The position numbers were made by a program. Positions 59,301 through 64,000 of a DNA stretch of 64,000 nucleotides are shown here, piece after piece. The DNA lies in the NCBI RefSeq assembly GCF_041248615.1, contig NZ_CP158425.1; one strand, given 5' to 3'. The stretch comes from Escherichia coli (lineage in GTDB: Bacteria > Pseudomonadota > Gammaproteobacteria > Enterobacterales > Enterobacteriaceae). Numbering within the stretch: position 1 is the first letter of the stretch; each line of letters begins with the position of its first letter.

Positions 59301-62300
59301 TTTCCGTTCCACAGGCTCCGTACTGACATTGTGCAGCGAAAACGGGCTGTACACCTACAGCAACCAGCATTAACGTACTCAGTAAAGTAGATTTCATACA
59401 CACCTCTTACAGTCGGAAAAGTTACTTTTGCGCAGCGCCCATTTGGGTCACCAGGTTTTCCGGGCTCAGCCACCCCGTAAATAACTGCGGTTTGCCGCTT
59501 AGTGTCACCATGGTAGGAGTACCTTGCAGCGGGATTGTTGAGGCCACCTGGAAATGCGATTTGATAATGTTTAAGCAAGCCTCATCAGGACGTCCTTCCG
59601 GGATAGTTGAAACCGGATTCATCGCTGCATCCAGAGCTTCGTTTGGCTTTGCTGAACACCAGATTTTGGCCATGTTCCCGGCTACTACCGAGTTCAGTCC
59701 TGCACGTGGGAATGCAAGAAACTTAATCGAAATACCGGCATCAAGATAAGACTTCAGATCATGATGCAGTTTTTGGCAGTATCCACAGGTTATATCGGTA
59801 AAGATAGCAAGCCGGTATTTTTCGTTTGGTGATTTGTAGTCGATGGATTTTGTTTTGGATGCGAATTCCCGGACGCCCATTAAAATGGCCTGCTCAGTGG
59901 TGTTTACCACATCTTTACCTTTCACGTGGAATAAGCTTCCGGTAAAAATGTAATCTCCGTCTTTGCTCACGTAACTTACCCCCTCCCTGGAAATCACCGT
60001 AAAAATATCTTTTACTGGCGAGGGTTCGACGTGCTCGATTGAAAGCCCAATGGCTTTGAGCTTATCCCGGGCTGCATCTGGCAGTACCATTGTATTAACC
60101 GGCTCGGCATTCATCGTGAAGGCGGTACTTAATGAAAGAAGTAATACCGATGCCTTAATAATTTTTTTCATTTATGCTCCTTGAATCGAGCACTAATATT
60201 ATCACGCCCAAAAATTCCAGAATTTTGCTTAAACGCTTAAATCAACGGGTAAAGCCGAAAGAAAGTCGATAGATATATGGGAGAATAGATAAAACGTAGA
60301 TTCAGTGGAGAAATCGTTGTGTTTACACCACCAGCAGATGATGTGAAACCTATTCCCGTTCCTGATGAGATTTACACTCAGTGCATTACGGATGCCGCCC
60401 GCTTCTTCGGAATTGATGCCGAACTGGTTTTTACGTTGTTTGACAATGAAGGCGGTAAGGTTGGTACTTTCAGCAGGAATACTAACGGCACTTATGATAT
60501 TGGCCCGATGCAGATCAACTCATCCAATCTGCCTGAAATAAAAAAGCATTTCCCGACTGTAACGTGGCGGGTTCTGGCTTACGATGCTTGCGCTAGTTTC
60601 TGGGTTGGAACATGGTGGCTCTACAGAAAAATTGTTGATCGCAAGGGCAATGTGTTTGAAGGGATTGCAGATTACAACAGCAAAACCCCAAAGGTACGTG
60701 CAAAGTACATATTTAACTTCATGGTAAAGTACAATCGCCGGATCCAGCAGCGTAACGGGATGGGTGAGCTTTATCAATGGACCCAACAACCTCCTCGATA
60801 CAATGGCCATATAGCTAAAAATGTCCCGGAGCAAAACCCGACTCCTGTTGTTAAATAAATTCAACCTGATATTACAGAAGATCATCGAGTAGCTTGGGTA
60901 CCCCCCCGCAAAAAATTCGCATAGACTCAGGGGTAATAAATTGTCTTTTTCTGCAAGAAATATATTTAAGATTCTCTCTTCTTTCTTGATGCAGAAAAGC
61001 CCTCTTCATGAAGAAGTATGTGTTCCTGAAGAAACAACAGCTGGTTTATGGGGCCCTCTCCCTGATTCGCATGTCGTGCTTTTCTTAGATTTCGATGGGG
61101 TTTGTCACAGGTGCAAAAATGAAACCTTTGAGCGAATGCCATTGGTGGAAAAATTACTGGATAAATGCCCTTCCATGGTGATTGTCATCTCCAGTTCGTG
61201 GCGTGAATGTGCCAGTATAACTTACCTGAAATCTCTTTTCCGGCTACCTTATAGAGACAAAGTCATAGGTGCTACCGATTCGGTATATTTAAAACCTAAT
61301 CAGTCAGGTGTGCGGGCTGCTGAGTGTGAGGACTTTGTATTTTCACATCGAGTTAAAGCATTTATCTGCCTTGATGACGACGAATCATTATTCCCGGTCG
61401 GTTATCCACATTTGCAAAAAACCAATTATTACACCGGCCTCACCGAATCTGATCTTGCAGCTCTTAACACCAGGTATCATCTGCTTATGAAACGTTGGGC
61501 TTCCTGAATTAAAGTAACTTTTACGGAGAGCATGCCCGCATTATCAGTTCTATGCTTCTCCATTTCTGCCCCGGGTCAAAGCATTGCACAGTTGGAAGAA
61601 AACATGCCGGTCTCTTAAGCTTGCTGCTCAGTTTGGTTCCGGTGCTGAAAAACCTGCCAACGGTGCTTTAGGAATTCAGTATTGATGGGTTTACGCAGCG
61701 GCTTAATAAACTCTCCTTGATATGCCGCTAAATCATGATCTACCGCCAAAGCTTCAGCGAGAATGTTAACCTCCAACGTCACCGGATGAATGGCAATCAT
61801 GTTTGCGTCGAAAAGATCGTGTATATCATGGCGTAAGAGCAACCCATTTGTATAATGGTCTACTCCTCCGTTACGATGCTCCATCAGATGAGCAGCCTCA
61901 GTGCGCTGGCGCAGTCTAGAGCCTGTAATCACACATTGGTCATAACAGTTGTTGCGGACGGCTTCTGCAAATGAGGCCTGATCTGGTCGTGTCTCGACAG
62001 TTGTCTTACTACCCTTACGCTTACCCGGTACAGTAGTTTCATCAGGAATATTCGGCTGAAGCTCCTTTTCTTCTATACCATCAGTCTTCATAGCGACCAT
62101 AATCGCGGCCGGTGGAGATTTAGGCTGATCTTCCTGCGATCTTTCGCGGCCACCAACTGGATACCCTAGAAAACCCTCAATGATCTCTAGTGGAGGTAAT
62201 GTAGCGTTTGAACGTGCATAAATAGCGAACTCTGCGGCACGTCCGCCGGGAATATATCTACGTACCAGTATTGGAAGAGAGGCTTCTTCATCTGGTTCCT

Positions 62301-64000
62301 CTTTTTCCGACAGGATTATTCGTTCGGTGAGACGGGCTGAATTTTTTTTCATTTCACTCAACAGTCTATTGCGTTCTTTTACCTTTCGGTCATTATCCTC
62401 CAACATCTTACGATGACTAACCTTAGCCAGATGGTCTTCCAGTTCCTGTATATATTCGGGATCGATAGTGTCAATTAGACCGAACGCCATCAACCGCTCC
62501 CCCCTTGTTTTACAAGATTCTAGCCGAACGCGAATGTACTCCTTACGCTTGGCCATCAAATGTTCTTTTTGTTTTTTTTCTCGAATTACACGGAGCTGAG
62601 TATTGTAATTAGAATAAACGGTTTCGCTATTCTGCTCTGTCTCTAGAGCAAATTTTTGTAGGTGTTCACGTAGTTTTTTACGGGTATTTTTGGGGGCATG
62701 CATTACGGTACGCTCAATGTATGAGCCTGTGCAGCGTAAAGAAAGTACAGTTTCAGCATGGGAATAACCAGCATTGAGACGATAGCGGGCAATTTTAAGC
62801 AAATTATTAAAGTGTGCACCATTACATATACCTAGTTCTTCCAAGACACGACGTTCTCTATCATTAATAGATGGATGGTTAATATCTTTTACTTTGTTTG
62901 CCATGTCCTGTGTCTCAGTGCCTATTCAGCCGGAACATCTACTACATAAAGAACGAGATTGTACAGAAATCAGCTAAGTTTATGAATAAAAAAGGCCGCA
63001 AATTTATACTTTGCGGCCTTCACTGTTTAACACCATATTTTAGTAAATACGTTTAATTTTCATTAGGTTATATTTGAAACTCACCTACCTTTTATTTTCA
63101 TTAAGCCACTGATCCGCTTTATCGACACGTGACTGGTAAGGCTCATTTGTGTTGCTCAGCTCTGACTTCATGTACTGAATGAATTCATCTGCTTTCTGAG
63201 GCCCAAAGCGTGGGTCATCCGTCAATTGCTGCCGGATAGCCCTTTCAGAGTTCTGCGCTGCATTCGCATAAGTCGAAACGCCGTCGCTGCTAATACTCTG
63301 ATACCGGTCACTTACAGCTGCGACGCCATCAGACATCTGCATGTGATTAAGGACTTTACCCTGGAGAGAATCAGGCATATTTGCAGGGTTAGAGGCATCA
63401 TTTGCTATCGATGTCTGGGTTTGAAGGATGCCCGCTCCCGTAAGCATCTCATTTACCGGTTTCGCCCCAACGCTGGTTAGCGTATCCGAAACAAATTGCT
63501 GGCCCCCGAGTAGCGCACCAGAAATCGCGCCCCGCTCAGTGTTGGCCTCTATCTTTTCCCCAACCAAGCGATCTGTGACGGTCTGAGTGCGGTTACCAAC
63601 GAGACCACCGCCCGACCCACCCTCTCCTAGGTTTGCCCGTACGACTGACTCAAGTGAACCATCAGCTCTGTTATGAGTGTTGAAACTGCTATGGATGCTC
63701 TGAACGTCATTCATACTCCAGTTAACGTTATAGTTACCCAGTTCATTAAGGATCTTCTGGGTATCCGCTTTGAGCTGCTCTCTTTCGGCACCGGTAGCCA
63801 TGGTGCTGGCACCATAGGTAAAGACAGCTTGCTGTGCCAATTCAGCTCGCTTATCGTCCCGGCTTAAGTTCGGGTTGTTGGCAACACGACTAAAGTAGTT
63901 ATCAGTGTTATTAGATAAGCCACGAACTTGACCGCTCTGATACATACTGTTCAAAGCAGTGGCTCGTTGATCCATTCCATCACCAACCACCCGACCTCCG

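Follow-up and report, generated by a model that had tools for sequence, protein, structure and literature searches.

The window analysed here is a stretch of 64,000 nucleotides from Escherichia coli (contig NZ_CP158425.1 of assembly GCF_041248615.1). It matches IncHI2 plasmids such as pSTM6-275, which is typed IncHI2A, MOBH and MPF_F, at 100% identity and belongs to a conjugative IncHI2 plasmid. The two genes that are the subject of this analysis are located at the far end of transfer region Tra1, one encoding a protein of 429 amino acids (aa) with a C-terminal HNH nuclease and the other a 188-aa protein of the HAD family. The gene order in this part of the plasmid is a trhF-like thioredoxin gene, trhH, trhG, the 429-aa open reading frame (ORF), the HAD ORF, an SLT lytic transglycosylase gene and a DsbC-like gene. 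The 429-aa gene has the same orientation as the trhF-trhH-trhG block and lies about 9 kb from the oriT-proximal mobI/mobH region. The initial annotation of this DNA described two convergent ORFs of 429 and 188 aa, and both were found, the 429-aa ORF on the minus strand and the 188-aa ORF on the plus strand (Table 1), with a stop-to-stop distance of 107 bp.

That the 429-aa protein ends in an HNH nuclease was confirmed with Pfam, where HNH_2 (PF13391) matches aa 324-373 with 41.2 bits (cutoff 21) and an E-value of 1.5e-10. The same family scores above its gathering threshold in all 10 close members that were searched (best E-value 3.7e-12). H339, N353 and H362 are invariant across 37 aligned sequences. 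For structure prediction with AlphaFold2 (AF2) these 37 sequences were trimmed to the homologous regions, giving a model with a mean predicted local distance difference test score (pLDDT) of 84.6; an earlier model from 10 homologues was poor in the nuclease part. The model shows the beta-beta-alpha fold at pLDDT 92-98, with two strands (335-339 and 354-358) and a helix (359-366), and the catalytic motif is intact. In a Foldseek search the top solved structures were VcaM4I (6yex, E-value 1.7e-3) and TagI (6ghs, E-value 3.3e-3), both with a probability of 1.00, followed by weaker matches to EcoKMcrA (6ghc, E-value 0.35) and ScoMcrA (5zmm, E-value 2.4). Searches of the PDB with the single sequence and with a 10-sequence profile gave no match, and VcaM4I was reached by the 37-sequence profile only (6yex, E-value 5.5e-6). 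The nuclease module is homologous to the Type IV modification-dependent restriction enzymes VcaM4I and TagI. HNH_2, group 6 in the classification of this superfamily, is its restriction-enzyme branch, with AlwI, BbrI, HphI and SRA fusions as members (PMC5714182).

In total the 429-aa protein consists of five parts, namely a helical head, a long helical hairpin, a three-helix module, a disordered linker and the C-terminal HNH_2 nuclease. The N-terminal ~300 aa are helical and charged, in agreement with the charged, probably coiled-coil domain proposed in the initial annotation. The head is possibly helix-turn-helix-like. Behind it follow two long helices, charged and poorly conserved, which we read from the model as an antiparallel hairpin. 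The three-helix module carries the motif LVRRYIPGG..AEF...PL.IIEGFLG, which is conserved in the homologue alignment. Length and sequence of the linker differ between homologues; in the window protein the composition of aa 251-305 is 11% proline, 13% glutamate and 11% lysine.

The domain and fold searches proposed by the initial annotation for the N-terminal domain were carried out and gave no family and, among solved structures including those searched with Foldseek, generic helices only. In aa 1-300 none of the 10 members contains a Pfam domain, even at E-values up to 10, and NCBIfam, PHROGs and PADLOC returned no match that is informative for this region. Neither Pfam nor the structure matches revealed an SRA, EVE, YTH, other PUA-superfamily or sulphur-binding sensor domain in these residues. 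Among 1.84 billion cluster representatives, a profile built from the N-terminal region recovered 16 proteins, and otherwise the N-terminal 250 aa were unmatched. All seven full-length proteins of this set that were scanned against Pfam end in HNH_2.

About 14 clusters of full-length homologues of the 429-aa protein exist, and its relatives fall into three nested tiers that share the whole protein, the part from about aa 206 onward (three-helix module, linker and HNH), or the HNH module alone. The three-helix module is common to relatives with different heads (P0018, P0020, P0023, P0025 and P0057), and longer family members carry a duplicated head motif. The HNH module is 55-63% identical in many proteins in which it stands behind unrelated N-terminal heads, which argues for a constant effector combined with variable heads. 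These alternative heads of related HNH_2 proteins likewise contain no Pfam domain. In a curated collection of phages we found matches to the HNH module only and no full-length relative. A constant effector behind exchangeable heads is also the pattern of modular restriction enzymes, in which it is the N-terminal domain that sets the selectivity (PMC6212794).

The 429-aa gene is inserted in a slot, defined here as the interval from the HAD stop to the trhG stop. In a blastn comparison with the IncHI2 plasmid pCFSAN004025.1, homology on the left stops at 61497 and on the right restarts at 62988, leaving a lineage-specific cassette of 1490 bp in between. A promoter-like site was found inside the cassette and the strong trhG terminator at its right edge, and for these reasons the 429-aa gene is insulated from the tra operon and probably expressed on its own. 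The only other ORF of at least 50 aa in the cassette is one of 52 aa (62898-63056, plus strand), which runs antisense across promoter and terminator. A methyltransferase gene is absent from the 1490 bp, and the flanking neighbours are trhG and the HAD gene. At the cassette ends, a search for terminal repeats and target-site duplications yielded only short matches as expected by chance.

Among IncHI plasmids the slot occurs in different states. It is empty, with a length of 246 bp, in the IncHI1 plasmid pHCM1 and, with 372 bp, in the IncHI1A-typed pCFR-eb27. In about 520 PLSDB records, all IncHI2 plasmids of one lineage (lineage A), it holds the 429-aa gene, and in about 435 further IncHI2 records (lineage B), the flanks of which are 96% identical, it holds an unrelated HNH+YrhA pair on the opposite strand. 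An empty slot was not found in any closely similar IncHI2 plasmid. The 429-aa gene is thus optional cargo in an intergenic slot. The layout of the lineage-B pair resembles that of a toxin and its immunity gene. For both of its proteins no PADLOC family was found, and no Pfam family beyond the HNH domain. The idea that YrhA is a SUKH-type immunity protein was dropped, as it finds no support from Pfam or PADLOC and nothing was found in the literature.

Across plasmids the 2-kb region corresponding to window positions 60860-63100 (and loci L012-L017) is a hotspot for insertions. Among the insertion sequences (IS) observed are IS1 upstream of the HAD gene, ISVsa5 and ISKpn26 in the spacer between the HNH gene and trhG, and IS3 in the 3' end of trhG. 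In pLH30-mcr1 the mcr-1 transposon has been placed between DsbC and the 429-aa HNH gene (PMC5748712).

Table 1. Positions of the features discussed; coordinates refer to the window unless a locus or plasmid is named.
Feature	Position	Strand	Basis or remark
429-aa modular HNH_2 endonuclease gene, stop included	61615..62904	-	ORF call, Pfam HNH_2 E 1.5e-10
N-terminal four-helix head, aa 1-71 (predicted)	62692..62904	-	AF2 helices within 15-68, pLDDT 93-98
Two long helices, aa 72-195, charged, poorly conserved (predicted)	62320..62691	-	AF2 helices 72-129, 149-193
Three-helix module, aa ~205-250 (predicted)	62155..62292	-	AF2 helices 210-217, 220-232, 238-246, pLDDT 85-97
Disordered Pro/Glu/Lys-rich linker, aa 257-302 (predicted)	61999..62136	-	pLDDT <50 in both AF2 models
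HNH (beta-beta-alpha-metal finger) nuclease module, aa 303-429	61618..61998	-	AF2 pLDDT 92-98
Lineage-specific cassette, 1490 bp, not shared with IncHI2 lineage B	61498..62987	.	blastn breakpoints vs pCFSAN004025.1
Sigma-70-like promoter of the cassette, TTCATA-17-TACAAT	62958..62986	-	consensus scan, pattern match only
Intrinsic terminator of trhG, 12-bp stem, 6 G-C pairs, T-run	62991..63021	-	terminator scan, inverted repeat; backbone edge of slot
HAD_SAK_2-family HAD phosphatase-like gene, IncHI backbone	60941..61507	+	Pfam E 7e-20
trhG 3' end (TraG_N conjugal transfer gene), upstream neighbour, backbone	63085..64000	-	pSTM6-275 annotation, ORF
SLT lytic transglycosylase	60319-60858	+	
DsbC-like protein	59422-60171	-	
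3' remnant (codons 157-283) of a different 283-aa HNH_2 paralogue	745..1128	+	tblastn, 46% identity to aa 305-424
Lineage-B cassette: 353-aa protein with C-terminal PF01844 HNH, 10 bp, then 168-aa YrhA-family protein (NF038335)	L018:3723-5300		pCFSAN004025.1
~90-aa upstream ORFs of the P0004, P0005 and P0049 loci, first position	L008:7716-7991		
~90-aa upstream ORFs of these three loci, second position	L004:7725-7997		
~90-aa upstream ORFs of these three loci, third position	L026:7723-7998		

An allele with 57% identity is located in the same slot of another IncHI-like plasmid (L007), and the divergence of the two plasmids was compared gene by gene. For the HAD gene the synonymous divergence (dS) is 0.17 at 85% aa identity, for SLT it is 0.28 at 94% and for DsbC 0.49 at 95%. 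The HNH module, with a dS of 0.28 and 80% aa identity, falls within this backbone-gene range of 0.17-0.49. In the N-terminal 295 codons, however, synonymous sites are saturated (proportion of synonymous differences, pS, 0.66-0.81) at 37-70% aa identity, and in the spacer from the gene to the trhG stop, which contains the terminator and the promoter, no DNA similarity between window and L007 was detectable. The contrast between saturated N-terminal sites and the backbone-like dS of the HNH module, together with the dissimilar spacer, indicates that the N-terminal region and the upstream spacer have been exchanged by recombination with a distant allele. Compared with the 57% allele, the ratio of non-synonymous to synonymous divergence (dN/dS) is 0.13-0.37 per module, which corresponds to purifying selection on both halves of the protein and thus argues that the 429-aa gene is a working gene.

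The neighbouring 188-aa protein matches HAD_SAK_2 (PF18143) with 72.2 bits (cutoff 27.5). The DxDG motif of HAD type noted in the initial annotation was found as DFDG; HAD motif I (DxDx[TV]) is present as DFDGV within VVLFLDFDGVCH, and from its sequence the product is probably HAD phosphatase-like. The start of the gene is ambiguous, as PGAP uses either TTG at 60941 (188 aa) or ATG at 60989 (172 aa) in identical sequence. With a dN/dS of 0.44 the HAD gene is under looser constraint than SLT (0.10) and DsbC (0.05). It was found in 2015 plasmid records, comprising both IncHI2 lineages A and B, IncHI1-like plasmids and IncHI plasmids of Klebsiella. It occurs without the 429-aa HNH gene in one IncHI1, one IncHI1A-typed and one Klebsiella IncHI1B-typed plasmid and in IncHI2 lineage B, including positions beside empty slots. 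The HAD gene is an independent IncHI-wide backbone gene outside the cassette.

Homologues with 30-42% identity are never located beside HAD or Tra genes. All those with enough flanking sequence are located on mobile elements or islands and have mobile-element or defence-type genes as neighbours; one contig of 2.7 kb was too short for any context. In Salmonella islands the homologue adjoins Type I restriction-modification (R-M) systems, helicase-PLD and NERD-helicase genes and another HNH_2 gene. On an Enterobacter contig the neighbours are a KAP NTPase and an AAA_15/21 ATPase, in Pectobacterium the homologue is part of a small island, one homologue is carried by an integrative element inserted next to type I-F cas genes, and another is found in a phage-like contig that also encodes terminase and portal proteins. 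The homologue carried by a Serratia plasmid adjoins its rep genes. One contig is rich in small ORFs and contains ParE-like and tRNA_anti-like genes, and NikA-like genes are also present among the small ORFs near some homologues. Several of the homologue loci look like defence islands. As a side observation, the Salmonella bongori island with a 38% homologue contains a second HNH_2 gene of 259 aa (L009:13445-14224), helicase-PLD and a Type I R-M system with two HsdM genes, so that several HNH_2 nucleases are stacked in this one island.

Directly upstream of the HNH gene an ORF of about 90 aa is present in the P0004, P0005, P0049 and P0009 loci and missing in IncHI2. The ORFs of P0004 and P0005 are homologous with 39% identity, the one of P0009 is unrelated, and no family match was obtained for this ORF, which could encode a regulator or a partner. 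A shared partner gene was considered and rejected.

We give about an even chance to the reading that the 429-aa protein is a stand-alone restriction-like conflict nuclease encoded by a self-promoted cargo gene. The initial annotation had listed defence, anti-defence and homing as candidate functions; this is still the right set, and within it the evidence leans to a restriction-like conflict nuclease. Target selection would be the task of the N-terminal region, and the target may be foreign DNA or a DNA feature absent from host and plasmid. Dimerisation, known from TagI, would probably be brought about by the helical hairpin, and the HNH domains, tethered by a flexible linker of about 45 residues, would nick or cut close by. 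Plasmid and host would then benefit in conflicts with phages or competing mobile elements. In TagI, which is a dimer, the HNH is weakly specific and owes its selectivity to the sensor domains (PMC6212794).

Among known systems VcaM4I (EVE-HNH; 6yex; PMC7897488) and TagI (SRA-HNH; 6ghs; PMC6212794) are likewise single-chain, NTP-independent proteins, in which a targeting region at the N-terminus precedes an HNH_2-type nuclease at the C-terminus. They share the motifs R..Q..F, C.VTG, A.H[IL], NGLLL and H.LFD with the 429-aa protein and also lack a cognate methyltransferase gene. However, they read DNA with a base-flipping beta-barrel sensor of the PUA superfamily, whereas the N-terminus of the 429-aa protein is predicted to be all-alpha, is twice the size, is joined by a much longer disordered linker and showed no relative of known function in the searches. 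The Type IIS enzymes AlwI, BbrI and HphI (His-Me finger group 6; PMC5714182) belong to the same Pfam nuclease family, a likeness by family placement, and have a separate N-terminal recognition domain of unclear fold with cleavage presumably distant from the site, as is proposed for the 429-aa protein. They come with methyltransferases, however, and none accompanies the 429-aa gene. EcoKMcrA and ScoMcrA also combine a sensor with a C-terminal HNH and are carried by mobile elements, but differ in their sensor domains, and the scores are far under the family thresholds.

A PUA-type reader of 5-methylcytosine would be self-toxic in hosts with Dcm-methylated DNA, and a non-PUA head is consistent with this constraint. 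Going by the predicted structure, the protein may combine an undescribed all-helical targeting region with an HNH_2 restriction-type nuclease; its gene is swappable cargo of epidemic resistance plasmids. None of the results points to an unexpected mechanism. A more far-reaching proposal is that the helical N-terminal region is a new invader-recognition module replacing PUA-type readers, that the two major IncHI2 lineages use their mutually exclusive cassettes as allelic weapons, either against each other or against phages, and that the slot is a dedicated conflict locus of IncHI plasmids, comparable to the defence hotspots of SXT-family elements; this we regard as unlikely.

Several observations weigh against a restriction-like conflict nuclease. 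The searches described above revealed no recognisable DNA- or modification-reading fold in the N-terminal region, and all hints of a helix-turn-helix from profile and structure searches are non-significant. PADLOC-DB 2.0 gave only weak matches to generic HNH models, in the C-terminal region (E-values 1.7e-5 and 0.029), without partner genes, and the only match in NCBIfam, to a phosphorothioate-restriction model, is far below threshold (16.5 bits, cutoff 180). A literature search found no paper that mentions the protein and no functional study. Several of the homologue contexts are plain plasmid or island cargo regions and no defence islands. The 429-aa gene itself is split by IS5 in at least 10 Salmonella records and by ISSen3, in plasmids still typed conjugative, and is therefore dispensable. 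In addition, the ~520 carriers are almost identical, and the prevalence of the gene may reflect clonal spread of one plasmid lineage and not selection.

The split copies speak against a relaxase accessory as well. The initial annotation had named a homologue of such an accessory, or of a phage-packaging HNH, with no independent activity as the case that would overturn its reading; both were rejected, as the family is HNH_2 and not of PF01844 type, the protein is 429 aa long and the gene is absent from IncHI lineages with intact Tra1. The initial annotation had further treated the HAD and HNH genes as a pair, which could combine, for example, the processing of nucleic-acid ends with cleavage, or else the HNH protein could be an accessory of conjugative DNA processing. 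The genes are adjacent and convergent inside Tra1, both are kept in the L007 plasmid, and the HAD family is named after RNA-repair proteins. However, this explanation is largely refuted by the distribution and we give it next to no credence, as the HAD gene is present in 2015 records and the HNH gene in about 520, the homology breakpoint lies at the HAD stop codon, and the two genes are therefore not a unit; outside IncHI plasmids the HNH gene is without HAD and Tra genes in every sufficiently flanked locus, and the terminator insulates it from trhG. A free-standing homing endonuclease, that is, a selfish gene whose product cleaves related IncHI plasmids at the empty or alternative slot so that the gene is copied into the cut site without benefit for the plasmid, would explain why an optional, self-contained nuclease gene sits exactly between backbone genes and is present, absent or replaced among related plasmids, with different nuclease cassettes at one site in the two main IncHI2 lineages. 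An HNH tethered to a DNA-binding module is also a classic homing design (PMC5714182), and endonucleases of the T4 Mob/Seg type are equally optional genes with their own promoter between conserved genes and with presence/absence polymorphism. They belong, however, to another HNH subfamily, their domain order is the reverse of that in the 429-aa protein with its C-terminal nuclease, and the relatives of the latter are at scattered loci: those of 30-42% identity occupy unrelated islands, plasmids and a phage-like contig, several by R-M or candidate defence genes, and the 57% allele alone shares the site. Moreover, the nuclease module is nearest to Type IV restriction enzymes and not to characterised homing enzymes, an exchange of the N-terminal region within one slot is unexpected if the conserved flank is the target, and no closely similar IncHI2 plasmid was found whose empty slot would show a clean insertion. 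Homing is therefore unlikely in our view.

A factor for establishment, anti-defence or plasmid competition would be expressed early in the recipient and attack resident plasmids, prophages or defence loci, or exclude the rival IncHI2 lineage. This would fit the co-orientation with the trhF-trhH-trhG block and the ~9 kb distance to mobI/mobH, the mutually exclusive nuclease cassettes of lineages A and B, and the small ORFs with ParE-like, tRNA_anti-like and NikA-like genes around some homologues, which are typical of transfer-associated regions. Plasmid leading regions are enriched for anti-defence genes (PMC11541004). However, that study makes no reference to IncHI, and where it speaks of nucleases it is not describing nuclease genes of the leading region; essential tra genes separate the 429-aa gene from oriT, and Pfam, PADLOC and PHROGs searches revealed no similarity to known anti-defence proteins, which makes this role quite unlikely. 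A further reading is an addiction or abortive-infection toxin, in which case the 429-aa protein would be a non-specific nuclease, kept in check until plasmid loss or phage infection sets it free. Systems of this kind often use HNH effectors, the lineage-B cassette in the same slot has the arrangement of a nuclease and, after 10 bp, a small YrhA-family gene, and the ~90-aa ORF is conserved directly upstream in the sub-clade of P0004, P0005 and P0049. We consider the toxin very unlikely, however, as the IncHI2 cassette has no second ORF able to encode an antitoxin or immunity protein, the small upstream ORF is absent there and not conserved in P0009, and YrhA has no detectable signature of an immunity family.

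Plasmids of this IncHI2 lineage rank among the major carriers of multidrug resistance, including mcr-1, in Salmonella and E. coli, and the 429-aa gene is present in more than 500 sequenced plasmids while its function is not discussed in the literature found. Restriction of phages or rival plasmids by the protein would have consequences for the co-existence of plasmids, for phage therapy on carrier strains and for the dominance of one IncHI2 lineage in some hosts, and the single-chain HNH restriction enzymes would gain an all-helical targeting module beside their known sensors. Should the protein instead be inert or selfish, the analysis still clarifies that HAD is a backbone gene and that the HAD/trhG junction is a hotspot of recombination and insertion.

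The decayed second copy mentioned in the initial annotation, which corresponds to window 745-1128, was misidentified. It is the truncated end of a different 283-aa HNH_2 paralogue (Table 1), which shares with the 429-aa protein the HNH module alone (44-46% identity) and has an unrelated N-terminal domain. The remnant contains an ORF of 112 aa (790-1128). To the intact paralogue gene (L002) it is 99.5% identical at the DNA level from position 745 onward only, and upstream of it stop codons are present in all three frames. The intact gene is found in pGENC405 and many other IncHI2 plasmids. Turnover had been suggested on the strength of this second copy; that argument falls, but turnover at the slot is real, as seen from the three states of the slot (empty, 429-aa gene, HNH+YrhA) and by the exchanged N-terminal region. 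By eye the N-terminal 150 aa of the intact paralogue look beta-rich and might be a sensor of modified bases; Pfam gave no match for them. The remnant lies beside the plasmid hns gene, which encodes H-NS (window 745-1128 and 1735-2139). Elsewhere in the window, positions 16001-24000 and 40001-42000 have a G+C content of 61-65%, compared with 40-48% in the backbone, which suggests that these stretches are acquired accessory modules such as resistance regions.

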